DNA of 64,000 bases, taken from assembly GCA_964431605.1 (NCBI GenBank), contig CAYSLH010000001.1, positions 22,719 to 86,718 on the forward strand, in the 5' to 3' direction. A program made the position numbers and the translations under genes. Positions 7,098 through 63,989 of the stretch are shown piece by piece. This stretch comes from an uncultured Myxococcales bacterium. GTDB lineage: Bacteria; Myxococcota; B64-G9. Every line of letters starts with the position of its first letter. Positions within the stretch are counted from its first letter, which is position 1. The notes beneath the pieces are model-generated. The model saw nothing but the letters and a program-made list of their open reading frames with translations, was not told the DNA's origin and did no database searches.

Positions 7098-7204
7098 ATG
7101 CTGTCCTCCTCTGGTCAGGATCCCCAGTCTATGCCCGAACCAACTCTTGAGCAATGGGTTCCAGAAACATAAAATAAATATCTAATAGAGGAAAGGATGA
7201 ACAA

Positions 7205-7897: not shown

Positions 7898-8060
7898 CCC
7901 TTATTAGAAGGTTCGAGTATAATTGCAGCCGAGATGAGTATTTCCGGCAATGCTTGACGAAATCTGTACGATAAGCGAATCTTTTGATGCTATCGAAAAT
8001 CACTACCGAGCTGATAATGATTATCGTCCCGCAACGATTAGCAAAAAAAGGAGAAAGCCC

Positions 8061-11318: not shown

Positions 11319-11344
11319 TTGTAACGACCTGGAGGTAATTCAAC

Positions 11345-36056: not shown

Positions 36057-36079
36057 GGTAATAAAACCCCTTAGAATAT

Positions 36080-36919: not shown

Positions 36920-36987
36920 GATGTCATGGATGGTATCTTTTGAGTTCTCAGAAATCCAATCCTTTTTACTTGAAGGGCCGGCTGAAC

Positions 36988-37452: not shown

Positions 37453-37456
37453 TCTT

Positions 37457-40257: not shown

Positions 40258-40271
40258 TTTGAAAAATAGTT

Positions 40272-41399
40272 TTAGATTCTCATGGGCATGACGACGCAGG
40301 TGTACTTTTCCTCAGAGGTTGGTCTTATCATGCAAGGAGAGAGGTCGTCTTCAAAGGAAACCAAAACTTTTTCTGTATCTATGGAAGAAAGTGCATCTAA
40401 CAAGTATTTGGTATTGAATCCAATTGTTATTTTTTCATCTATCCCTTCGACTTCCAACTCCTCAACAGCCTCACCCAGGTCAGGATTTGAAGTCGAAATT
40501 TTAAGGCTGTCATCTTCCAATATTATTCTTATTCCCAGATTTTTATCGTTTGAAAGAATACTTATTCTCCTGAAAGAATCCATCAGTTTTTTTCTTTCCA
40601 ATGTAATCTCTATTTTCTGTTTTGATGGAATCACATGTTTGTAGTCAGGAAACTTACCATCTATAAGACGCATCACAACACTTACATTATCCATCTTGAA
40701 AATGAGATTACTCCCGTCCAATCCCATCATACACTCATTTTTCACATCATCTAAGAGTCGCTTAATTTCCAGTAAACCTTTTCGTGGAATTATCACTCCT
40801 GCTTCAGAAGAAAATCCTTCTTGCTGTTCGCAAAGTTTAGAATCCAGCATTGAAAGCCTATGACCATCAGTGGCAACCATTCTGAATTCACCATTTCCGT
40901 GTGACTCCAAGTAAGCGCCATTGAGATTATATCTGGTCTCATCATTAGAAACGGCATAACTGGTTTTTTCTATCATGTTTTTTAGAACACCAGGTTCTAC
41001 CTTGAACAATTTTGCTTTGCTTACATCGGGCAATATCTGGAAATCCTCTGGAGACATCCCCATCATTTTGTATTCTATTTTTCTACCTTCGACATTCGAC
41101 TTGATTCTTGCCCAGTGGTTATCCATTCTTTCAATGTCAACTGTTCCTTTTGGCAAGGATCTGATGATATCGTAAAGATGTCTTGCACTAATGGTTATGG
41201 ATCCAGGGGACGATACATCAGCTTCGTGTTCTCCGCTGACCCCAACCTCCAAATCAGTTGCAGTAACAACTACCCTTCCATCGCTACGTGCCTCAATGAG
41301 GACATTTGAAAGAATCGGCATGGCTGTCTTTTTCTCGACAATACCTTGAGCCCGGTACAATCCCTTTGTTAGTTCATCTGTATCGATACTGAATTCCAT
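40272..41399 (-). CDS. dnaN: DNA polymerase III beta sliding clamp DnaN
   Basis: Three-domain beta-clamp pattern (MEFSIDTDELTKGL...PILSNVLIEA). Start taken at the ATG of MEFSID. Confidence 0.9.
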   Translation of the reverse strand: MEFSIDTDELTKGLYRAQGIVEKKTAMPILSNVLIEARSDGRVVVTATDLEVGVSGEHEADVSSPGSITISARHLYDIIRSLPKGTVDIERMDNHWARIKSNVEGRKIEYKMMGMSPEDFQILPDVSKAKLFKVEPGVLKNMIEKTSYAVSNDETRYNLNGAYLESHGNGEFRMVATDGHRLSMLDSKLCEQQEGFSSEAGVIIPRKGLLEIKRLLDDVKNECMMGLDGSNLIFKMDNVSVVMRLIDGKFPDYKHVIPSKQKIEITLERKKLMDSFRRISILSNDKNLGIRIILEDDSLKISTSNPDLGEAVEELEVEGIDEKITIGFNTKYLLDALSSIDTEKVLVSFEDDLSPCMIRPTSEEKYTCVVMPMRI

Positions 41400-41438
41400 G
41401 GCGTCACCTCTATTGCACTTCGGACGACAAAACAACAT

Positions 41439-41673
41439 ACTGGTTTCTAATAATTATCTTTAAAAAGAAACCAAGTAGAAATCATAGGACCTGTTAGATA
41501 CTGGTTTTATGACACAACCTCACAAAAAAAAAGAAAAAAAAGAACACAGTTTCACGTTGATAATCTGTTCTTAACTTGTTGGAAACATGAAAAATATTTT
41601 ATCAACTTTTTTTCCACAGGGTTATTGCCTATCCTTTCCACTTTCTACTAACTTTTTTTACTTCAGTAAATTG
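41439..41673. promoter_or_regulatory. dnaA-dnaN intergenic region with DnaA-box-like TTTTCCACA (41609-41617), TTATCAACT, and an A-tract; possible oriC component
   Basis: Motifs are seen directly. The same TTTTCCACA variant occurs twice just upstream of dnaA. Confidence 0.45.
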
Positions 41674-43032
41674 TCAGAGAGAGAGTTGTCTCTTTATGGC
41701 TTCGATGATGTCTTTTACAGACTGATCTCTATCTTTGAGTTTGTCTATCTGTTGGACTGCACTTATGGCAGTGGAATGATCTTTTTTAAATTTTGAACCT
41801 ATCTCCGGAAACGTGGAATTGAGATAAGTTCTGCAAAGGTACATGGCAATTTGTCTTGGCCTTGAAATGGAACGATGCCTTCTTTTTCCTTTTATATCAG
41901 ACATGCTGATGTTGAAAACAGCACACACTGCCTTTTGAACGTCTTCTATGGAAACAGGAGATCCTGAGGTGATAATCTCTTTGAGTTCTTCTTTTGCAAA
42001 CTCCAAAGTAATGGGAACACCAAGCATGGATGACATGGCACCTAGTCTTTTTAGAGAACCCTCTATTTCTCTGATACTTGATTTCACAGACGAGGCAACA
42101 AACAAAGCTACGTCATCCGGAATATCGAGGCCTTCACTCTCAGCCTTTTTTTGAAGGATTGCTATTCTTGTTTCTATTTCCGGTGGCTGGATATCAGCGA
42201 TGAGTCCCCACTGAAATCTGGTTCTCAACCTGTCTTCCAACTCTGGAATTTCCTGTGGATTTCTGTCAGAGGTCAACACGATCTGTTTGTATGACTCGAA
42301 CAAGGTGTTGAAAGTATGAAAAAATTCTTCTTGAGTCTTAGTCTTTCCAGATATGAACTGGATGTCATCGATTAGCAAAAGATCGCAATTTGACCTGTAT
42401 TTATTTCTGAACTCATCTGTTCTGGCTGTCCTGATGGAATGAATTAGTTCATTTACGAACGTCTCAGTAGAAGTATAGATTATCCTGAATTTTCTGTGAT
42501 CAACCAGTATCCTGTGACCAATTGCGTTTAGAAGATGAGTCTTTCCAAGACCGGCTCCGCCATAAATAAAAAGAGGATTGTATGCAGTTGCCGGGTTTTC
42601 TGCCACGTTCATGGATGCAGCGTGAGCGAGTTGATTGGAAGAACCGACCACGAATTGTTCGAAGGTGTAGCGAGGATTGAGTCCTTGTTCTTTTGAAGCC
42701 TCTATTGCGGTCATTTCTTTTGAATCATCAGGTTGGTTTGGCATATTGGCCGCATTATGCATAGCCTGTACTTCAGCAGCCCGTTCAGGCATGTCAATTA
42801 TTCTCAACTGAACCACAACGTCTTTTGCAGCAACGGAAGAAAACTCTTCCTGGACTATGTCTTTCAATCCGTGGTCTTTGATCCAGTCTCTGGTAAACCT
42901 ATCTGGTACACCGAGATAGACTTTGTTATCATCACTTTCTATAAATTTCAGTGGTTTGAACCAGGTTTGATAGTTTTGGTTGCTGACTCGTTTTTCTATT
43001 GCCTCAAGTACTGCTGACCAAAGTTCTTTCAT
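41674..43032 (-). CDS. dnaA: Chromosomal replication initiator protein DnaA
   Basis: N-terminal MKELWSAVLEAIEK, AAA+ Walker A GGAGLGKTHL, sensor motifs, C-terminal DnaA-box-binding HTH (IAMYLCRTY). Start at the ATG (the track ORF begins at GTG 43044). Confidence 0.95.
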   Translation of the reverse strand: MKELWSAVLEAIEKRVSNQNYQTWFKPLKFIESDDNKVYLGVPDRFTRDWIKDHGLKDIVQEEFSSVAAKDVVVQLRIIDMPERAAEVQAMHNAANMPNQPDDSKEMTAIEASKEQGLNPRYTFEQFVVGSSNQLAHAASMNVAENPATAYNPLFIYGGAGLGKTHLLNAIGHRILVDHRKFRIIYTSTETFVNELIHSIRTARTDEFRNKYRSNCDLLLIDDIQFISGKTKTQEEFFHTFNTLFESYKQIVLTSDRNPQEIPELEDRLRTRFQWGLIADIQPPEIETRIAILQKKAESEGLDIPDDVALFVASSVKSSIREIEGSLKRLGAMSSMLGVPITLEFAKEELKEIITSGSPVSIEDVQKAVCAVFNISMSDIKGKRRHRSISRPRQIAMYLCRTYLNSTFPEIGSKFKKDHSTAISAVQQIDKLKDRDQSVKDIIEAIKRQLSL

Positions 43033-43044
43033 AGATTTCGCCAC

Positions 43045-43321
43045 TTTTCCACAACTGTGGAAAACTTATTTTGTATTTATAATACAACACCTTATAGATT
43101 AAAATTTTTACGATAAAAACAAACCTTCACACAGTTATGGGAATGAGTTTAACCGTGTCAGGGCGATGGTGATGTTAAGCAAAATCAGAAACTCATTGCA
43201 AGGGAAAAATAATAAAAATATTAATTCGACTTGACACGGAACATGTAATGTGGTTCATATTCCAGGCTTTTCAGTCTTGGCGCGTGACAAAATCAACGCG
43301 CTTGGAAAGGGGTAGTTAGTC
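43045..43321. promoter_or_regulatory. Putative oriC / dnaA promoter region: inverted pair of DnaA-box-like 9-mers TTTTCCACA-ac-TGTGGAAAA (43045-43064), AT-rich tracts; genes diverge from here
   Basis: Seen in sequence. Consensus DnaA box is TTATCCACA (1 mismatch each). dnaA<- and ->rpmH flank the region. Confidence 0.6.
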
Positions 43322-43474
43322 GTGAAGCGGACATATCAACCTAGCCGCCGTAGGCGTACAAGAGTTCATGGTTTTCTTTCGAGGATGTCTACAAGTGGTG
43401 GAAGAAAAGTAATTCAGAGGCGCAGACGTAAAGGCCGCGCAAGGCTTTCCGTCAAGCTTTCTACCAATAAGTGA
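43322..43474 (+). CDS. rpmH: 50S ribosomal protein L34
   Basis: [47 protein letters not shown] start. Confidence 0.9.
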
Positions 43475-43499
43475 GCGAACTTCGAAAGCTCTTCCTGAA

Positions 43500-43847
43500 A
43501 AGAGAACCGAAAGGTTCCCTAAAAGTTCACGCCTACTGAAGCGTTGGGAATACCTGCGTGTTCAAAGAGGTGGAAAAAAGTTACAAACCCCTGTTTTTCT
43601 TGTTCTTTATAAAAAAAATAAAATTGGGATAACCAGACTGGGAATAGCGGTGAGCAAAAAGTATGGAAACAGTGTTCAAAGAAACCGCATAAAAAGACTT
43701 GTTCGAGAATCTTTCAGGAGAAACAGACAGCTATTTCCACCGTCGTTGGACATTGTTTTTATTCCAAAAAGAATTAAGAAAACACCTGGATATTCGGAAA
43801 TTGTCGAACAGCTTGGAAAACTTCGTTGGAGGAGGAAAATAAGATGA
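43500..43847 (+). CDS. rnpA: Ribonuclease P protein component RnpA (N-terminal boundary unresolved: no canonical in-frame start)
   Basis: Frame contains [20 protein letters not shown]...[23 protein letters not shown] (RNR motif). The first in-frame ATG (43650) is far too late. A GTG at 43471 is in the +1 frame. Confidence 0.7.
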
Positions 43848-44053
43848 AATGGGTCTTTATTTTCCTTATTAGATTGTACCAGCTGTTGATTTCTCCTCTT
43901 TTAGGACAAAGGTGCAGATTCTATCCAAGTTGTTCCCATTATTCTTTAGAGAGCCTTCAAAGATATGGTTTTTTCAAAGGAAGTTATTTGGCTGTCAAGC
44001 GGATAGTTCGTTGTCATCCATGGAATTCTGGTGGCAATGATCCCGTCCCTTGA
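43844..44053 (+). CDS. yidD: Membrane protein insertion efficiency factor YidD
   Basis: [36 protein letters not shown] signature. ATGA overlap with the rnpA stop. Confidence 0.85.
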
Positions 44054-44090
44054 TTCATAAAGATTTTTCCAACTTCACAATGGTGCTTCG

Positions 44091-45785
44091 ATGGATAAGA
44101 AAACTCTTCTGGCCATAGTAATCTGTGTTGGTATCTGGCTCGTGTGGTCCATGTTTTTCATGGAGACGCCAAAGGAACCTATATCAACAGACGGTGGTGT
44201 TTCCATTAACAGTGAGAAAGTCCAAGGCGCAACAGAAGAAAAATCAAAAGGTTCTGAATTGGCGCAAGATACGGAAAAACCTCCTGAGAACCGGCCGGTG
44301 GAACAAACTGTAAATTTGAAAAATAAATTCATGGTTGCCACGTTTACCACCAGGGGCGCTGCACTAAAGAAACTCCTGTTACCTGAATTCAAGGAACGAG
44401 ACGAGAAAAAGAAGCCTGAAGAGCTTGGACCACAAAACTTGGTCTCCACATCAAATGAAAGCAAATTACCTTTGACCATAAGATTCAGGGATGAAAAGAC
44501 CTCTTTCAAGATAAAAAAATATACAGATTGGCAATTGGTTTCAAAAAATGAGAAAGAGGTTGTTTTCAGGTACTCTAATCCATCGGATCCAACGATTCCC
44601 ACCATAACGAAAAAGTTTTCCATCGAACCGAATTCCTATTCGATGAACTTAGAAGTTACTCTGGACAACAGATCTGATTCCAGCACAACAGAGCAAATGA
44701 TGGTGAATCTCTACGCCTTGTATGCCCCGTCAGTACAAACTGGCTGCGCAGGAGCTCCTTCTCTGCCAAGAACTCCAATGTGTATGAATGGAGATAATGT
44801 AATACCTTCTTCTTCTGGATGCACATCATCGGCAAAGCTCAAACCAGGCGAGGCAAAGAATGCGGAACCAAATATCAACTGGACAGCCATAAACGAGCAG
44901 TATTTCGTGCTTGCGGTTATTCCTACTGGTGTAAAGCAAAGTTTCTGTCACATCGAAGCATTGCAGGACAATTCACTGGTGTCTAGTGTTATGTATCCAG
45001 AAAAAGTAATACCACCTGGGGCTTCCGAAACTCATAAATTCGAGATTTTTGCCGGACCAAAGAGAATGTCTTTGTTGAAAAAGGTAAAAAATGGAAACGG
45101 TGGTGACTCGAAGCTTTCTGCAACAGTAGACTATGGTTGGTTTTCATTTTTATGCCACCCTATGCTGTGGTTGTTGAAGATCTTTTATTCCTTTCTTGGA
45201 AACTATGGATTGGCAATAATTCTTCTTACCATAGTCATTAAAATAGTTCTTTTGCCTTTGACCAATAAGAGCATGAAGAGCATGGCAGAGATGTCGAAAT
45301 TAAAACCGTTGATGGAAGAGCTGAAGCAAAAGTATGGTGATGACAAACAGAAATTAAACCAGGAAATGATGGCTCTTTATAAAACTTATGGAATCAATCC
45401 CATGGGTGGTTGCTTTCCCATGTTGCTTCAGATGCCAATTTGGATAGCTTTATATAGAATGTTGTATTCATCCGTCGAACTCTACCAGGCGCCTTTCATT
45501 CCTGGATGGCTTTCAGATCTTTCATTCAAAGACCCGTATTATATTTTACCGGTGGTATTGGGTGCAGCCATGTTTCTCCAACAGCACATGTCTCCCACTA
45601 GTGCTGATTCACAGCAGGCCAAAATGATGAAATATCTAATGCCCGCTTTTATGACGTTTATAATGATTAACCTACCCAGCGGATTGGTCCTGTACATTTT
45701 GATAAATTCAGTGTTGTCAATTTTTCACCAGATGTATTACAACAAGAAAACCCAAGATCAGGCTATTACCCCTGTTGAAGGTTGA
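44091..45785 (+). CDS. yidC: Membrane protein insertase YidC
   Basis: N-terminal TM, large periplasmic domain, conserved 60KD_IMP core (GLAIILLTIVIKIVLLPLT). Confidence 0.9.
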   Translation: MDKKTLLAIVICVGIWLVWSMFFMETPKEPISTDGGVSINSEKVQGATEEKSKGSELAQDTEKPPENRPVEQTVNLKNKFMVATFTTRGAALKKLLLPEFKERDEKKKPEELGPQNLVSTSNESKLPLTIRFRDEKTSFKIKKYTDWQLVSKNEKEVVFRYSNPSDPTIPTITKKFSIEPNSYSMNLEVTLDNRSDSSTTEQMMVNLYALYAPSVQTGCAGAPSLPRTPMCMNGDNVIPSSSGCTSSAKLKPGEAKNAEPNINWTAINEQYFVLAVIPTGVKQSFCHIEALQDNSLVSSVMYPEKVIPPGASETHKFEIFAGPKRMSLLKKVKNGNGGDSKLSATVDYGWFSFLCHPMLWLLKIFYSFLGNYGLAIILLTIVIKIVLLPLTNKSMKSMAEMSKLKPLMEELKQKYGDDKQKLNQEMMALYKTYGINPMGGCFPMLLQMPIWIALYRMLYSSVELYQAPFIPGWLSDLSFKDPYYILPVVLGAAMFLQQHMSPTSADSQQAKMMKYLMPAFMTFIMINLPSGLVLYILINSVLSIFHQMYYNKKTQDQAITPVEG

Positions 45786-45802
45786 AAAGAAAAGGTGTGA
45801 AC

Positions 45803-46492
45803 ATGATAAAGGAGTTTTTTGGGGACGATTTGCAGGATGCTCTTTCCAATGCGAGTAAAAAATTGGGAATTGACAAGGAATCTATCTCCTATTCAAGGAT
45901 TGAAGGAACCTTTGGTTCTGCTCTCACAGGTGAAAAGATCGGCATACTCGTAACATATGACAAGAAAGAGAAAAAATCCAAAATTCCACAAAAGTCTTCT
46001 GATTTGATGCAGGAATTTGAGAAAATAAGGAACGAACCAAGTGTTGCAACTTCATTCGTGTTGGAAAAGATACTCTCTTCCATGGGTAGCCAAGTGAACA
46101 TCTCAGTAGAAGAAAAAGAAGATTTGGTTCTTCTGTCTGTGGAATTCAAAGGAGAAAAACCTGATACAAGAAAGGGAGACATCAGGGAACTGAGGGGAGC
46201 GCTGCAATATATCATCAATCGTGTTGCAAGTGAGGGAAAAGAAAAGAGCAAAAGATACATAGTTGACTTCAATGGAGACCTGGAAGAAAGAAAGAAGAAG
46301 ATGAAAGAAATAGCCGATGAGCTTGGTTCTTTCGTACAAAAACACAAGCAACCTGTTCACGTAGAACTTATGGATTCTCAAGACAGGAGATTGTTGCACT
46401 TGGCCTTGGAGAACGAAAAAGATATTAAAACATTTTCCCAGGGAGAAGGCAGGTTTAGAGTGTTGTGTATAGAGCCGGGGAAAAAGGATTGA
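45803..46492 (+). CDS. jag: Jag/KhpB RNA-binding protein (Jag_N + KH + R3H)
   Basis: MIKEFFGDDLQDALSNASKKLGI (Jag_N) and a C-terminal R3H-like region. Follows yidC as in many genomes. Confidence 0.75.
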   Translation: MIKEFFGDDLQDALSNASKKLGIDKESISYSRIEGTFGSALTGEKIGILVTYDKKEKKSKIPQKSSDLMQEFEKIRNEPSVATSFVLEKILSSMGSQVNISVEEKEDLVLLSVEFKGEKPDTRKGDIRELRGALQYIINRVASEGKEKSKRYIVDFNGDLEERKKKMKEIADELGSFVQKHKQPVHVELMDSQDRRLLHLALENEKDIKTFSQGEGRFRVLCIEPGKKD

Positions 46493-54898: not shown

Positions 54899-56359
54899 TT
54901 ACAAGCATACTGGTAACATTACCATGTGAGAGGTGCTTTGGCAGGTTTTTCCATCAGGGCATGGGTGTTCAATATCGCAGTATGCCCTGCAGTAATATTC
55001 AAAAGGATCGGAAGTATTTGGTTCCAATACACAATCAAGACCAGGAGCACAAAATTGGGTCATATCACTACAATCATCGCCTTCCTGCAGAGAACCAGGC
55101 ATCCAGCATTCGGTGGTTCCAGCCTCTGGGTCTGAGTAGTAGCATGCAGATTCTTCACCAGAGCATCCAGTCTGTAAAATTGGATCGCATCCGGGTCTGC
55201 ATACACCCCATGAGGTACCCAGTTCTGGCCAGGCCCAAACACAGTGTTGATCAGGCGAGGTACATTCCGATGCATTTTCGCAGTAACTTACGCAGGTTCC
55301 ATCAAGACAGATCAATCCAGCCTGGCAATCGGAAGAAGAGCAGTCTCCCCCTTCCTGTACATTCCCTGCAGGCAGACAGAAAAACACTCCGAAGTTTGAC
55401 ATGGTGCAGCGCTCGCCCTGTTCGCAGCCTTCAGCAGGTGGTTCACACGTGGCACAATGGGCTGTGCCGTCCTGAGGTTGCTGGCAAAACTGGTTTGATT
55501 CGGTACAATCTTGGGAGTCCCGCCAATATTTACAACTGTCAGCTCCTAGTTCACAACGTTGGATGGTAAACAAGTTACATCTTAGAGCATCCACCGTATC
55601 ACATTCATCGGTGCAGCCTTGCTGGCAGACAGGAACATCGCCTGAGTCGTCACAGTGTTTGTTGTCAGCTGCACAGTCAGTGGTATCGGCCCAATCAAGA
55701 CAACCCGAGTTGTCAGCGGTACATGTCTGGATAACATCACCTGAACACCTGAGGTCTCCTGCGGTATCACACTTGTTTACACATTCCTGGTTACAGACAG
55801 GAACATCGCCCGAGTCGTCACAATGTTCGTTGTCAGCAGCACAGTCAGTAGTGTCCGACCAGTCCAAACAGCCGGCGTCATCAGCGGCGCATGTCTGGAT
55901 AACATCCCCCGAGCACCTGAGGTTCCCTGCGGTATCACACTTGTTTACGCATTCCTGGCTACAGACAGGAACATCGCCCGAGTCGTCACAGTGTTTGTTG
56001 TCAGCTGCACAGTCAGTGGTGGTGGCCCAAACAAGGCAACCATCCTGACCTTCTTTGCAGGTTTGCAGCTTATCTTCAGAACATCGTGTTTCACCCTGTT
56101 TGTTACACATGTCCACACAGACACATTGACCCGAAGAACAAGTACGATTTCCATCACACGAATCTGTTTGTGTCCACACCAGGCAACCGTCTGCGTTCAT
56201 GGAACATGTCTTGACGGATTTCAGGTCTGAGGAACATTTCGTCTCATCTATTTTTTCGCAAGGGTTTTGTATTCCCAGACATTTGTCTTGCTCGTTGCTT
56301 GTACCACAGGAGATTTCTAAAAATGAAAAACCAACGAACAGGAGAATAGACAGTTTCAT
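54899..56359 (-). CDS. Cysteine-rich repeat lipoprotein (56 aa repeats CVNKCDTAGxLRCSGDVIQTCxADxxGCLDWxDTTDCAADNxHCDDSGDVPVC)
   Basis: GGAGG RBS then ATG at 56359. Lipobox FLEISC. At least 4 Cys-rich repeat units, and a C-terminal Cys-rich domain. Confidence 0.65.
   Translation of the reverse strand: MKLSILLFVGFSFLEISCGTSNEQDKCLGIQNPCEKIDETKCSSDLKSVKTCSMNADGCLVWTQTDSCDGNRTCSSGQCVCVDMCNKQGETRCSEDKLQTCKEGQDGCLVWATTTDCAADNKHCDDSGDVPVCSQECVNKCDTAGNLRCSGDVIQTCAADDAGCLDWSDTTDCAADNEHCDDSGDVPVCNQECVNKCDTAGDLRCSGDVIQTCTADNSGCLDWADTTDCAADNKHCDDSGDVPVCQQGCTDECDTVDALRCNLFTIQRCELGADSCKYWRDSQDCTESNQFCQQPQDGTAHCATCEPPAEGCEQGERCTMSNFGVFFCLPAGNVQEGGDCSSSDCQAGLICLDGTCVSYCENASECTSPDQHCVWAWPELGTSWGVCRPGCDPILQTGCSGEESACYYSDPEAGTTECWMPGSLQEGDDCSDMTQFCAPGLDCVLEPNTSDPFEYYCRAYCDIEHPCPDGKTCQSTSHMVMLPVCL
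55628..56035 (-). repeat. In-frame 168 bp tandem repeats (about 2.4 copies at DNA level; copies start at 55628, 55796, 55964)
   Basis: Units align with only scattered substitutions. Each encodes one 56 aa Cys-rich module. Confidence 0.85.
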
Positions 56360-56416
56360 AAAAATTCCTCCAAATTGAAAAGGAGATGTTACCTTATCCA
56401 CGATGGCAAACAATGA

Positions 56417-57916
56417 TCAATCCCTCATGGAAAAAATGGTAAATACATGATCATCGACCTTAGCGCAGAAAGCCTTATGGTGTTGGTTTTCGACCAGTAC
56501 TTCACAATTGTCTCCAGCAATTTGGATAACCTGGATCAAATCGAATGCTTTTGCAAGGCTTATATCCAGGGCCTTGGCTGCTGCCTCTTTTACCGTCCAA
56601 ACTCGGACGGCAGCTTCAGTGGCGCCTAATACTGATTTTGAAACCAGTTCTTGTTCTTTCTTGCTAAGAAATAACCTTGAACTCCTGATCACTTTTTCCG
56701 AGAGCATTTCCACGTCGATCCCGATGGGGTATGGGCTGGAGACGGCAATTGCAAAGCGAGGATCATGAGATGCAGCACAGTACCTGGCAGAATCATCTGA
56801 AGATGATAAGATTGGATGAACAAGATCTTCGGCAAGGGTCTCGATTTTCGAACCAGGAGTGCTCCAGTCATCAGATAGCTGTCGTGTCAGAAGTTTCAAG
56901 GCTATCCTGGCACTTCCAAAATCTCTGGCCCTTTTAGGTCCCAAATTACTCCAACGTTTTTTTTCATGGCTCGTAAATATGTAATCATAAAAATCGCACA
57001 TGGAATCCAGGTCCAGGACTGTCAATCCGGTACACACATCTCGCAACCTGGCGAGGGGATCTTCAAGAGAGTCTTTTCGTATCCACTCAGCGGGAGTGAT
57101 CCTTCCAGACGAAACATCCCTGAACTCTGTGTCCATGCATGCTTCTGCCAGGATGCCATCTTTGCGGAAGATGAAGATGTGGAAAAAGAGAGTTTCTCCT
57201 TTTTTCCCTGCAGGAAGGATTCGGCACCAGTATTTTTCACCTGTTTTGCAGGGTGAGTTTACAAACCTCTCCCCGTATCCCACGGGAAAGGTCAGCAATC
57301 CTTCGTACCTTTGTCCCCAGGCGCAAGCTAAGTGGAATGCTCCATCGAGGACGAAAACATTGCCTAGTGGGCCCCAAGGTGTGCGATGTTCGGCCGCGAA
57401 AATTTTCGCCACGGCTCCTGCCTCAGATAGAAAAACAGGTCCGGTAACATTTTGAAAAGAAGGTCCAAATGGAACCAGATCCTTATAGAGTTTTTGTGAC
57501 GAAAACCTTATTCCCACGCCCTCCAGGGCGACAGCCCTTTCTTTGAGAAGGTCAACAGGATCATGAGTACTCGCCTTAGTGCTGGAACCAAAACTTACTT
57601 CAACATGCTTCAGTGTTCTGCTAATTCCTGTTTTTCCAGCTTTTGTGTGAGAGAGCAGATTAGCCTTGATTGCATTTTTAGTTGGATGCAACTCCACAGA
57701 AGCTTTTACAATTGAGGATTCGGGAGGCAGGGGTAGAAACCGGTTGAATCTGGCATTGTGTGAAAACAAGACATTCGGTGGATTTGCGATATCTGACGCA
57801 CAGGTGGCCAAGTATTGAATTGATTCAACCGCTGGAAGAATGGATTTCCCCTCGAATTTATGATCCCTCAAATAAGGGGAGTTGGGGATGTCCAAAGGAA
57901 TTTTTTTTTGGTTCAT
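56417..57916 (-). CDS. Fusion protein: N-terminal PKS-type double-hotdog dehydratase-like domain + C-terminal AcpS/Sfp-type 4'-phosphopantetheinyl transferase
   Basis: HxxxGxxxxP motif (HKFEGKSILPAV) and downstream DxxxH (LDGAFHLA) typical of PKS DH. C-terminal PPTase motifs GIDVE and WTVKEAAAK. ATGA overlap with the upstream thioesterase. Confidence 0.65.
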   Translation of the reverse strand: MNQKKIPLDIPNSPYLRDHKFEGKSILPAVESIQYLATCASDIANPPNVLFSHNARFNRFLPLPPESSIVKASVELHPTKNAIKANLLSHTKAGKTGISRTLKHVEVSFGSSTKASTHDPVDLLKERAVALEGVGIRFSSQKLYKDLVPFGPSFQNVTGPVFLSEAGAVAKIFAAEHRTPWGPLGNVFVLDGAFHLACAWGQRYEGLLTFPVGYGERFVNSPCKTGEKYWCRILPAGKKGETLFFHIFIFRKDGILAEACMDTEFRDVSSGRITPAEWIRKDSLEDPLARLRDVCTGLTVLDLDSMCDFYDYIFTSHEKKRWSNLGPKRARDFGSARIALKLLTRQLSDDWSTPGSKIETLAEDLVHPILSSSDDSARYCAASHDPRFAIAVSSPYPIGIDVEMLSEKVIRSSRLFLSKKEQELVSKSVLGATEAAVRVWTVKEAAAKALDISLAKAFDLIQVIQIAGDNCEVLVENQHHKAFCAKVDDHVFTIFSMRD

Positions 57917-58419
57917 TGTTTAGCGGATTTTTCAGTTATGGGATTTGGGAATGTCTCCCAGGTTTTTACCGTAATGGGATCCACCGCCGTTGGCTTTCCC
58001 TTTTCGTTCAGAGCGCAATGAAGAGTATGTCCAATACAAACCAATTGGTTAGTCTCTGCGTGGATGATGACATATTCGAACTTGACCCGAACTCTCTCCA
58101 GATCGGCTGGCCTGGTGTGAATGAGCATGGGGCTGTCATATTTCAGTGGAAGGAAGTATTTCAATCCCAGGTCAACGATGGGATAGATGTAACCTGAGTC
58201 TTCTACCTGAGAGTATGGAAATCCTATGTCCCTCATCAACGAAGCGCGTCCCAACTCGAAGTACCTGAGATAATTTGCATGATATACGATTCCAGACCTG
58301 TCCGTGTCAGCGTATAGCACGCGATTGAAAACTTGATGGTATACCAAGCCAGTGGTTTTATCTTTAACAAACCTCTTGTCGCCGTTATGGGTCACAGGTA
58401 CAAAAGGAGGAGGTCGCAT
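57913..58419 (-). CDS. Hotdog-fold acyl-CoA/acyl-ACP thioesterase (4HBT/YbgC-like)
   Basis: YADTDRSGIVYHANYLRYFELGR matches the 4HBT catalytic region. 168 aa. Confidence 0.7.
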   Translation of the reverse strand: MRPPPFVPVTHNGDKRFVKDKTTGLVYHQVFNRVLYADTDRSGIVYHANYLRYFELGRASLMRDIGFPYSQVEDSGYIYPIVDLGLKYFLPLKYDSPMLIHTRPADLERVRVKFEYVIIHAETNQLVCIGHTLHCALNEKGKPTAVDPITVKTWETFPNPITEKSAKQ

Positions 58420-58421: not shown

Positions 58422-59687
58422 TTATACACCTTTGAATATTACGCAGCAGTTGGTGCCGCCGAATCCAAACGAATTGGACAAGGCAATCTCAACATTCGCT
58501 TTCCGTGGTTTGTTGGGCACCACATCAATGTCGGAAAGAGAAGGATCTTGCAAGTGATTGACCGTGGGTAGAATTATACCTTTTCTCATTCCCTCGATGG
58601 TCAAAGCGGCTTCAATGGCGGCCGAGGCACCTAGGGTATGGCCAAGCATGGACTTATTGGACGAGACAGGAAGGTTTTCCAGGTGTGGACCAAAAACCTC
58701 CCTGAGGCAATTGGCTTCTGTGGAGTCACCTCTTGGTGTGGATGTTCCATGGGCGTTTACGTAGTTCACATCTGAAGGAGAGATATTCGCGTCATCCATA
58801 GCGTCTCTCATGGCCTTTATGATGGTAGGAGCGTTGGGTTTGGTGAAATGATATGCGTCCGATGTCCACCCGATGCCCAAAACTTCGGCCTTCGGTTCTA
58901 ATCCATGAGCCTTTAGGGCATCTTCAGAAGCCAGGAGCACCACACCTGCGCCTTCGCTGAGCACGAATCCCTTTCTGTCAGAGGAAAAGGGGCGCGATGC
59001 CTTCGTTGGATCATCTACTGCCCTGTCACCTTCCTTTATTTTTATGGTAGCGCCCATGTTTGCAAAACCGTGGATTATCTCGGGGAGAATGGGTGTGTCC
59101 ACGCCTCCTGCCAACACGAAGTCCTGGTCTCCGTCCCGAATCAATCTGGCTCCTACTCCAATGGCATGATTGCCGGACGCGCAGGCTCCTTGAGGAGAAA
59201 AATTGAGTCCCTGGAATCCCAGGAGCATTCCCGCTTTTCCAGCTGGTAAATTCCCACAGAGGTTCGGCAGAAGGTATGGGCTGACCCGGTTGGGGCCCTG
59301 GTGTTCGAGAGCTTCCACGGCCGCCCGGTATGCATCGTGACCATTGAGGGCGGAGCCGATGAGGGAGGCTGTTCTTGGTGCTATGTCCGGGGTGATTTCC
59401 AACTTGGCGTCAGCAAGGGCATCCTTACAAACAGCCACGGTCAACAGGACAAAAGAAGCGTTCCAATTATAGACTTCTTTTTGTGAGGTGAACTCTTCGT
59501 CCAAAGGATCCCAATCAGGGATTTCCCCCACAACGTCGCACGGGCTTTTCACCTTGCACCTTGTAACTTTTCTGAAACCGGCCTTTGCTTTCATGGCATT
59601 TTGCCAGGTTGTCTGAAAATGCCGCCCAAGTGGAGTGGCGACAGCATATCCGACTACGAAAACTCTTCTGTTCAAAGGCGCCCTCAT
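58422..59687 (-). CDS. Beta-ketoacyl-ACP synthase (FabF/KASII-like, Cys-His-His triad present)
   Basis: Active-site GACASGNHAIG, His motifs NAHGTSTPRGD and MLGHTLGAS, C-terminal FGFGGTN. Confidence 0.85.
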   Translation of the reverse strand: MRAPLNRRVFVVGYAVATPLGRHFQTTWQNAMKAKAGFRKVTRCKVKSPCDVVGEIPDWDPLDEEFTSQKEVYNWNASFVLLTVAVCKDALADAKLEITPDIAPRTASLIGSALNGHDAYRAAVEALEHQGPNRVSPYLLPNLCGNLPAGKAGMLLGFQGLNFSPQGACASGNHAIGVGARLIRDGDQDFVLAGGVDTPILPEIIHGFANMGATIKIKEGDRAVDDPTKASRPFSSDRKGFVLSEGAGVVLLASEDALKAHGLEPKAEVLGIGWTSDAYHFTKPNAPTIIKAMRDAMDDANISPSDVNYVNAHGTSTPRGDSTEANCLREVFGPHLENLPVSSNKSMLGHTLGASAAIEAALTIEGMRKGIILPTVNHLQDPSLSDIDVVPNKPRKANVEIALSNSFGFGGTNCCVIFKGV

Positions 59688-59720: not shown

Positions 59721-61010
59721 TTATGCCACCGGGCCAAGAACCACACAAGCATTGCATCCACCGAATCCAAAAGCATTTTTTAGAACCCAGCGTGGTTCAT
59801 ACTCCACCGCATGGTCAAAAACATTAACTAACCCAAGTTCCTTGTCTGGACTAAGATTGATGGTGGGGGGCAGTGTTTTTCTTTCCATGGATTTTTGCGC
59901 CATCACTAATTCTATGGCGCTCGAAGCGCCCATGCAGTGACCAATGAGCGATTTATTTGCCGTAATGATTGGATGATTTGAACCAAAGAGCTCTAATATG
60001 CTTTTTGCTTCAACCGAATCTCCTACCTTCGTGGATGCGGCATGGGCGTTTATGGCACTGATGTCAGATGGGCCTATGCCGGCATGTTCAATTGCTTGAG
60101 CCATGCATCTTGTGACAGTGACTTGGTTTGGCGCCACGAAATGATGGGCATCAGAAGTCATGGCCCATCCTGCAACGGTTGCTAGTGGTGTCAGGGAGTG
60201 TTCTTTTGCAAAGTTTTTGCTACAGATTATTATGGCTGCCGCTCCTTCGGATATTACAAAACCTCTGCGATTGGAAGAAAAGGGGCGACTGGCTGAAACC
60301 GGCGGCTCAGGTTGGTCTTTTTTTGTCCTGTACGCTCCGTTCATGGTGGCAAATCCTGCCACGATGGGTTCCACCAACGGGAAATCCACTGCCCCGCAAA
60401 TTGCCACGTCTGCCATGCCTGCCTGGATGAACATGGCTCCGGTTATTAGAGATGTGCTTCCAGTGGCACATGCGGTAATGGATGTGGTGATGGGTCCGGT
60501 GGCTCCGGAAAGAATGGAGACTTTTCCCGCAACCATGTTAATGCATGAATTTGGATTGACGAATGGATGTGGAAGTTTTCCCTTTTCTCTCAGTTGTCTG
60601 TCTGCGAAAAGAACAGCGTCGAGACCACCGATAGCGGTAGAAAAGGTGGTGGCCACTCTAGGTGAAATCTCTGGGCTGATTTCCAGCTTGGCTTGTTTCA
60701 AAGCTCGATGAACCACGAGAAGGGAGTGTTTGAATACTGGAGAAAACCAGTGAGCCATCTTGCGTGGCTTGAGGAATTCGTATGAACTGGTATCAATATC
60801 CGGCACCTGTCCTGCAATGGTCACAGGAAAAGTTTCAGGGAGCGTAAACCGGGTCAATGGCCCAATACCACTTTTACCTTCCTCGGCATTGTTTATCTGC
60901 TCTTCGATCTGTGTTCCCAATGGGGTGAGCATATCCATGCCCACTATGACAGGACGATTATCCATAAGAAAAAGTAGCCTACCAGGGGAGGAACCTGTAT
61001 AGCTTGGCAA
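59721..61010 (-). CDS. Second beta-ketoacyl-ACP synthase paralog (active-site Cys retained, so not a CLF)
   Basis: TACATGSTS (Cys), NAHAASTKVGD, LIGHCMGAS, FGFGGCN. Start uncertain (60962 or 61010); overlaps the rSAM gene end. Confidence 0.8.
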   Translation of the reverse strand: MPSYTGSSPGRLLFLMDNRPVIVGMDMLTPLGTQIEEQINNAEEGKSGIGPLTRFTLPETFPVTIAGQVPDIDTSSYEFLKPRKMAHWFSPVFKHSLLVVHRALKQAKLEISPEISPRVATTFSTAIGGLDAVLFADRQLREKGKLPHPFVNPNSCINMVAGKVSILSGATGPITTSITACATGSTSLITGAMFIQAGMADVAICGAVDFPLVEPIVAGFATMNGAYRTKKDQPEPPVSASRPFSSNRRGFVISEGAAAIIICSKNFAKEHSLTPLATVAGWAMTSDAHHFVAPNQVTVTRCMAQAIEHAGIGPSDISAINAHAASTKVGDSVEAKSILELFGSNHPIITANKSLIGHCMGASSAIELVMAQKSMERKTLPPTINLSPDKELGLVNVFDHAVEYEPRWVLKNAFGFGGCNACVVLGPVA

Positions 61011-61977
61011 ACATTTCGTAAACGGTGATCCAGTTTTGGAGATCTTTTGTCGATTGCATGTGGGCGCGTTTGTTTACCATCACCCAACTCATATGTGCCG
61101 CACCGTCCATGCAGGTCGAGCAGTCTCTTGTTTGAGAGGTACAACAGCGGTGAGTGGTTTGAAGGTCAGATGCCCATCTGATGAATCGTATGAGGCGTTT
61201 GGGCTGCGGATCCCTCGTATCCCAGTTAATGGATACGGAGGGACACTCTTTCCATCCGAACTTTCTGCCCAGCATGGTCTGGGTGGTGAGTACTTCATGA
61301 TAGTAGTGCGAAGAAATGACGGTCCGGGGATACTTGATCAACATCTCGTCCATTTCTTCCCTTGCCTGTTTGAGTTGGTCTTGTGTCCAACTAAAGCCAT
61401 CCACTCCTTCGTCGTTGGAAAGAAGCTGCATGTGCACTTTCAAACCGCAGTCGTCGATCCGTTTTACTATGGGTTCGATGGAACCGAGTTGTCTGGGAGA
61501 AATGGTAAACAGGTAGTAAGTGTAGTCATCACCCTCGTAATTTTTGGAAGATATGGCAAACGTGTCTTTTCCCCTGAGCTTTTTTTCCACTTCGGGATCT
61601 CCCCAAAGAGAGATACCCACCATCATGTCGGGAAACTTTTCCCTGTCTACTTTGATGAGCCCGTTGGTGGCACAATATGTTGGCAACCTATCGTAAAAAG
61701 CCGCCACACGATCCAGATACAGGGTTGGCTCTCCTCCGATCAGAATTGCCAGGTTGACACCGCGTTGGACTTCTTTATCTATGAATTCTTTCCATTTTTC
61801 CACGTCGTCCTGTTCTTGTGCAGCCTTGTGTTCACCAGAAGAGAAGAAAAAGCAACCCTTGCAGCGAAGGTTGCACTTGTTGGTCACATCGTAGATGGAT
61901 GAACGAATATTCAGTTTGGAAATTCGCTTGTATCTTTCATACCACTCTTTGTCCAAAAGAGAGCTAACAGTTTTCAT
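60979..61977 (-). CDS. Radical SAM protein (CNLRCKGC) with Cys-rich C-terminal region
   Basis: CxxxCxxC at about residue 37, then GGEPTL. C-terminal CC..C..C cluster (RCCTSQTRDCSTC). AGGTGA RBS. Confidence 0.8.
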   Translation of the reverse strand: MKTVSSLLDKEWYERYKRISKLNIRSSIYDVTNKCNLRCKGCFFFSSGEHKAAQEQDDVEKWKEFIDKEVQRGVNLAILIGGEPTLYLDRVAAFYDRLPTYCATNGLIKVDREKFPDMMVGISLWGDPEVEKKLRGKDTFAISSKNYEGDDYTYYLFTISPRQLGSIEPIVKRIDDCGLKVHMQLLSNDEGVDGFSWTQDQLKQAREEMDEMLIKYPRTVISSHYYHEVLTTQTMLGRKFGWKECPSVSINWDTRDPQPKRLIRFIRWASDLQTTHRCCTSQTRDCSTCMDGAAHMSWVMVNKRAHMQSTKDLQNWITVYEMFAKLYRFLPW

Positions 61978-62027
61978 CTGGTCACCTGTTTGTATCTTGT
62001 TTCCTTCGAGTTTAATTTTATCATCGG

Positions 62028-63143
62028 CTACACGGGTACGAGGTCGAATCCGGGAGGAGGTACCAATTGCGATTGGAGATTCTCATCCTTTTCGTATCCC
62101 ATCACCCATACGGCCAAGTAAGTATCTACATAGTCGAGCCACGCTTTGAAATGTTGCGGGTCTTTTGCATGTCCATGGAGCCTGGCGGTCACAACTGCTG
62201 AACCAGCAGCATAATGCCTGCAATCGGCACAATCCGTATCAGGAACACAGCAGGCTACACCTCGATCCCAGTTCAGATCGGTCCTGTATTGTCTGAAAGA
62301 TCTCCCCAACCCTATGTGGGTGGATGGATTCATGCGGGGATAAGGACATTTATACAGAGCATGCAAGCCCTTTCGATGTGTATGAACCACGGCGGAATAT
62401 GGAGAAAAGAGCACGTTTTCTGGGTAGCGTTTCATGAGTTCCATCATGGAGTTTCTGGTCGCAACCAGTGATTGTTCATCGTGCCTAAGTGGTCCATCAT
62501 ATCCCACAGTAGAAGAGAACATGTTGAATGTCACTTTGAAATCATGTTGTGCCAACAGTCGCACTACCTCATCAGCTTCTGCAATGTTTTCCCTCGTATA
62601 GGTAAAGACGAAAACTGCCCTGTCATCTCCCTCGTAGTTTTCCATCTGCCTGACGAGGAGATCCTTCGCTCGTCTGATCTTCTGGCTGGTCTCGTCGTTT
62701 CCCCACACGGAGATGTGAATCTTGTATCCTACGGACCGGGGGATGTGCTTTACTCCATTTGTCGCAATACTTCCCAGAGGCATTTCTTCATAACACACAT
62801 CGAGCAGGTCCGGCACCAGGGCTGGTTCGGCTCCAGCCAGTACCACATACGTGATACCTCTGGCTTTTTCCTGTCTCATGAGAGCGCGCCAGGATTCAGT
62901 CTCCCTGTTCTCCTTGGCGAACTGCTTTTCTCCTTCGAAATAATAACAGCCGTCACAACGAATGTTACACCGGTTGGACATGTCGTATGTAGATTCTCTC
63001 AGAAAAAAGTATTTTCGGACTTTTTCCCATCTTCGGCGGACAGGGTCTTGCTCGAGCAACTGGGAGAATTTCCACTTTTGTCCAGCTTTGCCCGGGGGCC
63101 TAAAGTCCAACAATTCGCCTGTAGCTTGAGAGGATCCAGACAT
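62028..63143 (-). CDS. Radical SAM protein paralog (CNIRCDGC) with Cys-rich C-terminal region
   Basis: CxxxCxxC and AGAEPAL. C-terminal CCVPDTDCADC. Paralogous to the 60979-61977 gene. Start set at the first ATG (the track begins at TTG 63209). Confidence 0.75.
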   Translation of the reverse strand: MSGSSQATGELLDFRPPGKAGQKWKFSQLLEQDPVRRRWEKVRKYFFLRESTYDMSNRCNIRCDGCYYFEGEKQFAKENRETESWRALMRQEKARGITYVVLAGAEPALVPDLLDVCYEEMPLGSIATNGVKHIPRSVGYKIHISVWGNDETSQKIRRAKDLLVRQMENYEGDDRAVFVFTYTRENIAEADEVVRLLAQHDFKVTFNMFSSTVGYDGPLRHDEQSLVATRNSMMELMKRYPENVLFSPYSAVVHTHRKGLHALYKCPYPRMNPSTHIGLGRSFRQYRTDLNWDRGVACCVPDTDCADCRHYAAGSAVVTARLHGHAKDPQHFKAWLDYVDTYLAVWVMGYEKDENLQSQLVPPPGFDLVPV

Positions 63144-63196: not shown

Positions 63197-63433
63197 TCAG
63201 TCCATACAATCTTTGATGTACTTGGCGATGAGACGGACGTTCTTGAGTTTCGGATAATCATCTTCGTCGATGGTTATGGAGTATTCGTCCTGCAGCACAA
63301 GCACCACCGCAGTCAGATCCATGGAGTCGATTCCCAATTCATCGACCAGGTCCAGGTTCTTGTCAAAAGATTCTGGAGTGACATCTTCCAGTTTGAGTTC
63401 TTCAATGATAATTTGCGCTACCCGGTTTTCCAT
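63197..63433 (-). CDS. Acyl carrier protein
   Basis: 78 aa, LGIDSMDL phosphopantetheine attachment motif, acidic helical protein. Confidence 0.8.
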   Translation of the reverse strand: MENRVAQIIIEELKLEDVTPESFDKNLDLVDELGIDSMDLTAVVLVLQDEYSITIDEDDYPKLKNVRLIAKYIKDCMD

Positions 63434-63623
63434 GGTGTCTGATTCTAGCTTCATCGCAGTTGCTTCCATTGCTATACCTCTCCGTGTATCAGTTACCAAT
63501 TCGTTGATTTCCCCGTAACGTTCTCGCCTAACATCAATCTAGTCACCCTGTCAAGCTATTCACGTTTTGTACATTTGACGGCAATAGCATGTTTTTATTT
63601 CAAAGGAGACATCTGGTCCCTTC

Positions 63624-63989
63624 TCAGCCTACTTCCATCCTGCCGTCACCAACCCTTTCTCCTTGTCTGTTGATCTCGAACTTCACTGAATATAGCGAGT
63701 TTTTTTCCGATTCGTGGGTGATTTCACACCGGACTTCAATGTGTTGACCGGGCAGGACAAGACTCCTGATCCTGCTTTTGGGTATGGTCTTCAGATGCAG
63801 GTTGGGCTTCTTTGTCGAAAGTCTGACCAGGTTCAGTACGATATAGATGATGGCCAGCGCGGGAAGAATGGGTTTTTGGGGAAAATGCCCGTCAAACCAG
63901 GGAGAATCAGAAGAAAGGCTCAAGTCGGTCGAAAACGAGTTTTTCCCAACTTCTTTGATTTTCATGTCAGGTTGCCAGGAAGATGTCAT
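63624..63989 (-). CDS. FabZ/FabA-like hotdog beta-hydroxyacyl-ACP dehydratase
   Basis: FDGHFPQKPILPALAI catalytic His motif. About 115-120 aa. Confidence 0.7.
   Translation of the reverse strand: MTSSWQPDMKIKEVGKNSFSTDLSLSSDSPWFDGHFPQKPILPALAIIYIVLNLVRLSTKKPNLHLKTIPKSRIRSLVLPGQHIEVRCEITHESEKNSLYSVKFEINRQGERVGDGRMEVG

Follow-up and report, generated by a model that had tools for sequence, protein, structure and literature searches.

Paralogous radical SAM proteins in a conserved fatty-acid-synthase-like operon of an uncultured Myxococcales bacterium

Described systems and their relation to the Myxococcales locus

We analysed a 64-kb stretch of DNA from an uncultured Myxococcales bacterium (contig CAYSLH010000001.1), which is referred to as the window and to which all positions below refer. 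Near its end, two adjacent genes encode radical S-adenosylmethionine (SAM) proteins, rSAM-A and rSAM-B, between the genes of an acyl carrier protein (ACP) and a ketosynthase (KS). The pair sits in a fatty acid synthase (FAS)-type operon that recurs almost unchanged across hundreds of species, which suggests that it makes a modified membrane fatty acid. We consider it probable that the two proteins serve a dedicated FAS-like line as ACP-linked tailoring enzymes. Radical SAM genes inside a FAS-like cluster are also known from the anammox ladderane clusters (kuste3342, kuste3343, kuste3608, and kuste2803; Rattray 2009, Javidpour 2016, Dietl 2023). Clusters of this type were noted in Kuenenia and in Deltaproteobacteria, including the adjacent genes kuste3342 and kuste3343 (Rattray 2009, PMC2649909), the proteins of which were not detectable after expression in Escherichia coli (Javidpour 2016, PMC4790861). 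In Desulfobacterota and Myxococcota, antiSMASH is reported to call 'ladderane' biosynthetic gene clusters to which no function is assigned (PMC9902471).

The anammox cluster and the operon in the window share a dedicated ACP, a FabZ-like dehydratase, and paired FabF homologues. They differ in that kuste3342, kuste3608, and kuste2803 are of the B12 type, whereas rSAM-A and rSAM-B have no B12 domain. The anammox amxFabF2 and amxFabFmut form a heterodimer resembling a ketosynthase/chain-length factor (KS/CLF) pair, in which amxFabFmut lacks the catalytic triad (bioRxiv 10.64898/2026.05.19.726425), whereas both KS proteins of the window have it. Moreover, no phytoene-desaturase homologue was seen here, and the carriers are not anammox bacteria. 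We compared the N-terminal ~128 residues of kuste3342 and of kuste3343, taken from S2 Table of Javidpour 2016, with the proteins of our loci. The kuste3342 segment is 40–46% identical over 128 aa to a B12-radical SAM protein encoded near the pair in 53 loci, not to rSAM-A or rSAM-B. The kuste3343 segment resembles rSAM-B only around the CxxxCxxC motif, with ~35% identity over ~70 aa (E~1e-6 to 1e-7). The anammox pair was hence rejected as orthologous to rSAM-A and rSAM-B, kuste3342 being of the B12 neighbour type and the kuste3343 N-terminus only generically similar. Judged by these alignments, the B12-radical SAM protein is a component that extended Desulfobacterota clusters share with the anammox cluster.

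Aryl polyene (APE) clusters resemble the operon family: both possess discrete ACPs, paired KS, a 4HBT thioesterase, and hot-dog dehydratases of the ApeI/ApeP kind, and both lack an enoyl reductase (ER); the extended Desulfobacterota loci add a ketoreductase (KR) and LolA-like/MMPL export genes to the likeness. APE clusters are not known to carry radical SAM genes. Genes for an exporter, a KR, or an aryl-activating ligase are missing from the 64 kb of the window, its first ketosynthase (KS1) is not a chain-length factor, and the operon family contains instead a PS-DH–phosphopantetheinyl transferase (PPTase) fusion and PlsY. Of the APE hallmarks, the window shows only an ApeI-like dehydratase scoring below the cut-off, and both of its KS proteins keep the catalytic cysteine; we therefore did not assign it to the APE clusters.

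Among radical SAM enzymes that act on lipids, Tes/GDGT-MAS, Mss, GrsA/GrsB, Gms, HpnH, Jaw5, and Ted offer the parallel of radical chemistry on unactivated lipid carbons. GrsA and GrsB are a precedent for two paralogues of different regiochemistry, and Ted, which desaturates inert lipid carbons (bioRxiv 10.1101/2025.10.20.683597), is one for oxygen-independent lipid desaturation by a radical SAM enzyme. None of the enzymes covered by a 2026 review of this field (Tes, Mss, Gms, GrsA/B, Gmm, Cds, HpnH/J/P/R, Jaw5, and hypothetical ladderane enzymes; PMC13459092) is homologous to rSAM-A or rSAM-B beyond the core. The SPASM/twitch enzymes with solved structures (SkfB 6efn, anSME 4k36, SuiB 5v1q, CteB 5wgg, BtrN, and MoaA) are 14–20% identical to the pair. 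Unlike them, the pair has the cysteine spacing C-x30-36-CC-x5-6-C-x2-C, no Pfam SPASM match, no peptide-recognition domain, and a context of ACP and KS genes instead of peptides, sugars, or cofactors. No paper was found that characterises this radical SAM family, its operon, or its product. The family is uncharacterised and its C-terminal domain undescribed, while its fold class is familiar, and the operon probably places it in a "ladderane-like" cluster type already noted in silico. The original prediction had called tandem radical SAM paralogues acting on an ACP-bound chain unusual chemistry. The arrangement has more precedent than this implies: radical SAM genes in FAS-type clusters are a known and unsolved theme, under discussion for anammox bacteria and Deltaproteobacteria since 2009 (PMC2649909), although the pair of the window belongs to a different family.

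A paralogous pair with conserved C-terminal cysteines

The two genes and their cysteine motifs are as follows.

62028..63143 (−), rSAM-A, radical SAM protein, 371 aa counted from the ATG
62946..62969 (−), CxxxCxxC motif of rSAM-A (C59, C63, and C66), of the CNLRCKGC or CNIRCDGC type, predicted SAM-binding [4Fe-4S] site
62220..62252 (−), CCVPDTDCADC of rSAM-A (C298, C299, C305, and C308), with C266 upstream the presumed auxiliary cluster site
60979..61977 (−), rSAM-B, radical SAM protein, 332 aa
61852..61875 (−), CxxxCxxC motif of rSAM-B (C35, C39, and C42), invariant
61111..61146 (−), CCTSQTRDCSTC of rSAM-B (C278, C279, C286, and C289), with C245 (61243-61245) the presumed auxiliary cluster site

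The mechanical open reading frame (ORF) of rSAM-A begins at a TTG at 63209, ahead of the ATG at 63143; genes called independently on the contig as publicly deposited give both proteins the lengths stated above. BLASTP aligns rSAM-A and rSAM-B over 309 residues with 29% identity (E=4e-42). This similarity is far beyond chance and makes the two proteins true paralogues along their length, as had been proposed from the letters of the window. The motif counterparts quoted in support of that proposal, GGEPTL and AGAEPAL as well as HRCCTSQTRDCSTC and ACCVPDTDCADC, are present. Both proteins possess the CxxxCxxC motif and a partial (β/α) barrel core and are thus members of the radical SAM superfamily. 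rSAM-A matches the Pfam Radical_SAM model exactly at its cut-off (29.5 bits).

We then scanned the pair and 40 relatives with Pfam and NCBIfam models, and only the generic Radical_SAM and Fer4_12 models matched. The NCBIfam matches of the pair score 15–34 bits against cut-offs of 131–855 and are confined to the N-terminal core; neither NF045702, which covers the tetraether/membrane-spanning lipid synthases Tes and Mss, nor any SPASM-type equivalog is reached at its cut-off. The profile classes put forward in the original prediction found no counterpart: at E<=1, none of the 42 family members matches the Pfam models of SPASM (PF13186), the DUF3463/HpnH-type C-terminal domain, or the B12-binding domain (PF02310). 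A HemN-type match is likewise missing from the Pfam and NCBIfam scans of all 42, and no model of either collection covers the C-terminal domain of the pair.

The cysteines of that domain, which had been noticed as CC/CxxC-rich segments, are strongly conserved. Eight cysteines, composed of the CxxxCxxC motif (CNIRCDGC and CNLRCKGC in the pair) and the C-terminal set C-x30-36-CC-x5-6-C-x2-C, occur in all 128 close homologues of rSAM-A and rSAM-B. In rSAM-A, the CxxxCxxC motif, C298, C305, and C308 are invariant among 105 aligned sequences, and C299 is conserved in at least 90% of them; both the CxxxCxxC motif and C266 are kept in 66/66 members of the A family. In rSAM-B, the C-terminal cysteine motif is invariant in 128 sequences. 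Across these 128 sequences, both paralogues retain the GGE-type motif region and every cysteine of the two presumed sites. In the wider family (66 full-length representatives of clusters at 50% identity), the positions of C278, C286, and C289 are cysteine in 94–97%, and the pattern relaxes to C-x20-37-(C)C-x4-7-C-x2-C, that is, a four-cysteine C-terminal core. The conserved C-terminal cysteines fit a predicted auxiliary Fe-S site.

The AlphaFold2 models of the pair are confident, with pLDDT values of 91.7 for rSAM-A and 91.2 for rSAM-B. The rSAM-A model consists of ~13 disordered N-terminal residues, a (β/α)6 core, the C-terminal cysteine domain, and a tail of ~25 residues. Its top Foldseek matches are SkfB, SuiB, CteB, and BlsE, and the nearest solved folds of rSAM-B are SkfB, anSME, and SuiB. 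In the rSAM-B model, the cysteine motif follows two short strands (267-268 and 275-276) and precedes a helix (292-300), and this order of strand, strand, cysteine motif, and helix is the one found in twitch domains. As modelled, each protein probably holds one auxiliary [4Fe-4S] cluster and one spare cysteine. Part of our best explanation, which taken as a whole seems to us as likely as not, is that rSAM-A and rSAM-B are not redundant and belong to an undescribed radical SAM family within the SPASM/twitch branch.

The operon, its distribution, and its neighbours

The pair is flanked by six further genes of a conserved core.

63624..63989 (−), small hot-dog dehydratase, FabZ/ApeI-like with GHFPxxPxxP, 121 aa, first gene of the conserved core
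63197..63469 (−), ACP with DSMD phosphopantetheine site, 90 aa in the gene call, Pfam PP-binding E=7.7e-9
59721..60965 (−), KS1, FabF-like ketosynthase, 414 aa, Pfam ketoacyl-synt N and C domains
58422..59687 (−), KS2, FabF-like ketosynthase, 421 aa, identified by Pfam
57913..58419 (−), 4HBT/YbgC-type thioesterase, 168 aa, Pfam 4HBT_2 E=7.5e-14, TIGR00051 87.8 bits (cut-off 68.7)
56417..57916 (−), polyketide synthase (PKS)-type dehydratase fused to an Sfp-type 4'-phosphopantetheinyl transferase, 499 aa, end of the conserved core

These genes occupy the last 8 kb of the window on the minus strand and are transcribed in the order dehydratase, ACP, rSAM-A, rSAM-B, KS1, KS2, thioesterase, and dehydratase–PPTase fusion. 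The ACP gene lies 53 bp upstream of rSAM-A and KS1 begins 13 bp after rSAM-B, so that the pair is embedded between ACP and KS genes as had been described. From the ACP gene to the fusion, every gap is 2–53 bp unless the genes overlap, as do the thioesterase stop and the fusion start (by 4 bp). A scan of 54.5–64 kb for promoter and terminator consensus gave matches at chance level only. The small dehydratase matches Pfam FabA with 26.7 bits (cut-off 23) and ApeI-like also with 26.7 bits, here under the cut-off of 28.5, and it scores far under the NCBIfam FabZ cut-off. The fusion matches Pfam ACPS (E=2.2e-12) and, weakly, PKS_DH_N; it contains HxxxGxxxxP, and PS-DH is called on its orthologues. 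The catalytic Cys-His-His-Lys residues are kept in 66/66 orthologues of KS1 and 56/56 of KS2. Their motif identities come from the alignment itself; the residue numbers, set against E. coli FabF as position ruler, are approximate. This full conservation rules out KS1 as a chain-length factor. The predicted functions of the discrete ACP, PPTase, ketosynthases, dehydratases, and release enzyme together make up a type II FAS/PKS-like assembly line. On the same contig, upstream beyond the window end, lie a second ACP gene, an ABC ATPase gene, and a gene for a 284-aa protein without assigned family.

Detectable homologues number 1882 for rSAM-B and 2047 for rSAM-A, the best of the latter being ~70–75% identical. 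The best 120 rSAM-B matches are all exactly 332 aa long except one of 335 aa, and those other than the query's own sequence are 75–84% identical; the best come from Desulfosarcina, Smithella, Syntrophaceae, and Spirochaetes, among others. The nearest relative belongs to a Myxococcales metagenome-assembled genome (MAG), with 94% identity. In a scan of one genome per species, at least 545 genomes carry a relative, and the carriers are mostly anaerobic. We inspected the 80 best loci, again one genome per species, from Myxococcota, Desulfobacterota, and Spirochaetota. The gene order of the window is kept in nearly all of them wherever the contig is long enough, and a homologue of the small dehydratase stands just upstream of the ACP gene in most. 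Identity to the window protein is ~77% for rSAM-B, ~70% for rSAM-A, ~70% for the ACP (60–90% across syntenic loci), ~68% for KS2, ~60% for KS1, ~58% for the thioesterase, and ~30–40% for both dehydratases. Because rSAM-B stands at ~77% against 30–70% for the other proteins, it is the most constrained protein of the operon.

Some loci depart from this arrangement. In a Desulfatibacillaceae locus (L027) and one of an uncultured deltaproteobacterium (L038), rSAM-B and KS1 are present around 10001-12500 with no rSAM-A, ACP, or dehydratase gene within 10 kb upstream; in L038, unrelated genes follow KS1, and the linkage of KS1 and rSAM-B is kept even in this partial locus. The remaining operon genes of these two genomes may sit elsewhere or be lost. 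Eight Spirochaetota/Leptospirales loci (L009, L010, L013, L014, L032-L034, and L059) have 2.5–9 kb inserted between KS1, at ~11.0–11.3 kb, and KS2, at 13.5–20 kb. A 193-aa ORF with no Pfam family in the locus annotation lies between rSAM-A and rSAM-B in L088 (9107-9688), L004 (~9448), and L005 (~9455).

The neighbouring genes were surveyed by clustering all ORFs of the loci and annotating representatives. Recurrent neighbours are listed with the number of loci.

B12-radical SAM protein, 53
membrane polysaccharide-deacetylase-like protein, 33
second ACP, 26
KR, 22
LolA-like protein, 20
ApeP-like dehydratase, 19
MMPL-methyltransferase, 12
FabA, 12
AMP-ligase, 8

The B12-radical SAM protein of ~450 aa is encoded ~3–5 kb upstream of rSAM-B, after the second ACP (6634-7986 in L002 and equivalents), in most Desulfobacterota and Spirochaetota loci. 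Of the 51 loci in which the sequence reaches far enough, 33 have PlsY downstream of the PPTase fusion, and in 27 it is the immediate neighbour. Genes for the B12-radical SAM protein, KR, PlsY, LolA-like protein, MMPL protein, FabA, and AMP-ligase are all missing from the 64-kb window; as it holds none of these accessory genes, the Myxococcota version of the cluster is a minimal core. The variant locus L088, in which rSAM-A is 68% and rSAM-B 69% identical, carries a FakA/DegV fatty-acid-kinase fusion, PlsC, PlsY, and FabD. As in the PlsX/PlsY/Fak systems, a thioesterase, a fatty-acid kinase, PlsY, and PlsC make up a coherent route by which a fatty acid, once released, is turned into phosphatidic acid. 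Because PlsY adjoins the operon and these enzymes form such a route, the gene content suggests a membrane glycerolipid acyl chain as the product.

In clustering at 50% identity, rSAM-A and rSAM-B each fall into essentially one cluster, and at E<1e-30 the family comprises 137 cluster representatives, many of which are fragments. A divergent metagenomic lineage (L084) has an A-like (48%) and then a B-like (35%) gene beside two KS genes, an ACP gene, and a third KS gene. Since the A-then-B order is kept even there, this order and the duplication are old, with both copies retained. A Reinekea-like polysaccharide locus has an A-like singleton directly beside an ACP gene, and in Pyrinomonadaceae such a singleton stands beside KS and ACP genes. 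After the latter A-like gene (L089, 2333-2719), an ORF with a translation that by eye resembles a transposase fragment is seen where a B-like gene might be expected, and this operon may be disrupted. A third clade, from Alphaproteobacteria and Desulfamplus, has the following neighbours.

L083 (Marinicauda algicola), 8549-12776, cytochrome P450 and a 537-aa B12-radical SAM gene
L086 (Erythrobacter-like), 4179-10168, P450, MBOAT, and TauD
L087 (Desulfamplus), 4877-10869, two large radical SAM genes and a lipid A acyltransferase-like gene

It may represent another lipid-tailoring context, in partly aerobic bacteria. Proximity to ACP and KS genes is therefore a trait of the A and B subfamilies, in four gene arrangements, and does not extend to the whole family. 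Co-occurrence with ACP and KS genes is seen in nearly all of the 80 species loci and in three further arrangements. Loss of the C-terminal cysteine pattern among homologues, or homologues confined to places outside lipid genes, had been named as grounds for abandoning the prediction; for the A and B subfamilies, neither was found, because the C-terminal motif is conserved and ACP/KS adjacency recurs in these four arrangements.

Proposed function and competing explanations

Our best explanation is that the pair oxidises an ACP-tethered acyl chain in its own FAS-like line, and taken as a whole we regard it as an even call. Each protein would cleave SAM at a [4Fe-4S] cluster bound by CxxxCxxC, and its short hairpin-helix domain at the C-terminus would harbour one auxiliary [4Fe-4S] cluster. 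The setting would be a self-contained type II FAS/PKS-like line with its own ACP, a PPTase loading that ACP, two catalytically competent KS, two dehydratases, and a thioesterase, and the likeliest substrate would be the acyl intermediate on the adjacent ACP. The 5'-deoxyadenosyl radical would take a hydrogen atom from this substrate, the substrate radical would be resolved oxidatively, and the electron would pass to the auxiliary cluster. The outcome would be either a C=C bond by oxygen-independent desaturation or an intramolecular C–C bond closing a ring, with rSAM-A and rSAM-B acting at different positions or on different chain lengths. The thioesterase would free the finished acid, which in most lineages would enter glycerolipids via PlsY; the L088 variant may add its fatty-acid kinase, PlsC, and FabD to this route.

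In SPASM/twitch enzymes, the auxiliary cluster serves as an electron route. Hydrogen abstraction followed by the loss of one electron via the auxiliary cluster amounts to a net two-electron oxidation, as in the dehydrogenations by anSME and BtrN and the cross-links made by SkfB, SuiB, and CteB. The oxidative proposal is favoured because the nearest folds of the pair are auxiliary-cluster enzymes that carry out such oxidations. Still, oxidative chemistry specifically, by desaturation or ring closure on the ACP-bound chain, is a tentative assignment that we put below the tailoring role itself. More doubtful still is the farthest-reaching form of the idea, namely that the pair would be the first bacterial cobalamin-independent radical SAM enzymes that need no oxygen to functionalise unactivated carbons in a fatty acyl chain while it grows on its ACP, and that each of the two would place a double bond or close a carbocycle at a defined position.

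Several observations weigh against our explanation. The third clade, ~28–30% identical to rSAM-A and to rSAM-B, consists of single genes with no ACP neighbour. The five extra conserved cysteines exceed what a single fully ligated cluster requires. No gene for PlsY, KR, ER, or an exporter accompanies the cluster in the 64 kb of the window, and the membrane-lipid destination therefore rests on other lineages. Finally, the LolA-like, MMPL, polysaccharide-deacetylase-like, KR, and ApeP-like dehydratase set of Desulfobacterota recalls aryl-polyene export and, as a neighbour set, would point to an outer-membrane polyene instead of a phospholipid acyl chain. This last observation leads to the idea that the pair tailors a specialised non-membrane product, such as an aryl-polyene-like, outer-membrane-anchored or secreted polyene or polyketide, which we hold to be rather unlikely. 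It would account for the ApeI-like match of the small dehydratase, albeit below the cut-off, and for the AMP-ligase and glycosyltransferase genes that accompany the ApeP-like dehydratase, KR, LolA-like, and MMPL-methyltransferase genes in many Desulfobacterota loci. The antiSMASH 'ladderane'-type clusters of Desulfobacterota and Myxococcota, with product unknown (PMC9902471), would suit it as well, and no ER was seen among the annotated conserved neighbour families, the annotation covering part of these families. However, PlsY is immediately adjacent in 27 loci and L088 adds PlsC, Fak, and FabD; a cross-phylum identity of ~77% is unusual for secondary metabolism; exporter genes are missing from the window and the Myxococcota loci; and the catalytic cysteine in both KS proteins differs from a KS/CLF pair.

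The other explanations concern the two proteins themselves. That one paralogue is catalytic and the other structural or substrate-presenting, as a chain-length factor is to a ketosynthase, would be in keeping with the adjacency of rSAM-A and rSAM-B, with their constant order across distant lineages, and with the precedent of the amxFabF2/amxFabFmut heterodimer of the anammox cluster. We regard it as improbable, as both proteins keep all cysteines of both presumed sites and the GGE-type region in the 128 sequences, A-like proteins occur alone with an ACP, and rSAM-B occurs without rSAM-A in L027 and L038. LipA and BioB are auxiliary-cluster radical SAM enzymes working on fatty-acid-derived chains, and a similar insertion of sulfur at two carbons of the ACP-bound chain, using a sacrificial auxiliary cluster, would yield a small acid, a product for which the operon's dedicated ACP, its KS genes, and its thioesterase are to be expected. 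The fold neighbours of the pair are SPASM/twitch enzymes, however, not LipA or BioB, whose auxiliary sites have three cysteines plus Ser/Arg; the four to five cysteines here suggest a fully ligated, non-sacrificial cluster, and PlsY adjacency fits a lipid better than a cofactor. Sulfur insertion is thus quite improbable.

Methylation or methylene insertion (cyclopropanation), which the original prediction had listed among candidate reactions, is very unlikely, because neither a B12 nor a HemN-type module was found in rSAM-A, rSAM-B, or the 40 relatives. Radical SAM lipid methylases are known, and the HemN-like Jaw5 cyclopropanates PKS-bound enoyl intermediates (PMC13459092); but 332–371 aa leave little room for a second SAM or a cobalamin site, and for any methylation that may be required, the extended clusters have a separate B12-radical SAM gene (53 loci). 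The top fold matches SkfB, SuiB, CteB, and ChlB are enzymes of RiPPs (peptides that are synthesised ribosomally and then modified post-translationally), which would make the pair peptide maturases in a coincidental lipid-gene context. This reading is hardly credible and was rejected: a precursor gene does not fit into operon gaps of <=53 bp, proteins of only 332–371 aa show no RiPP recognition element or peptide-binding N-terminal domain, and the synteny with ACP and KS genes extends over nearly all 80 loci and other arrangements.

The carriers, which include sulfate reducers, syntrophic fatty-acid and alkane degraders, spirochaetes, and Myxococcota, are environmentally important. If the pair modifies an ACP-bound chain, it would provide a new oxygen-independent route to functionalise fatty acids and predict an undiscovered lipid class, possibly a biomarker for anoxic settings. 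It would also be a more tractable model for radical SAM enzymes in FAS-type clusters than the uncultivable anammox bacteria, as cultured carriers exist (for example Desulfosarcina variabilis, D. widdelii, and Hydrosulfovibrio ferrireducens). Should the pair indeed carry out oxygen-free functionalisation, sulfate reducers, syntrophs, spirochaetes, and anaerobic Myxococcota would share unrecognised unsaturated or cyclic membrane fatty acids, made by a chemistry close to that long postulated, never shown, for ladderane biosynthesis.

Two other features of the window were observed. Directly downstream of the operon, 54899-56413 (−) encodes a predicted secreted protein of 504 aa (486 from the ATG) with no Pfam match, which consists of several near-identical cysteine-rich repeats (...CAADNKHCDDSGDVPVC.QECVNKCDTAG.LRCSGDVIQTC...). 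In the closest Myxococcales MAG (L003), the operon is likewise followed by a copy, with 69% identity; L006 has a 32% match in another place, and the other loci lack the protein. The segment at ~36000-46000 has a GC content of 0.38–0.41, compared with 0.44–0.53 elsewhere in the window, and may be compositionally distinct.

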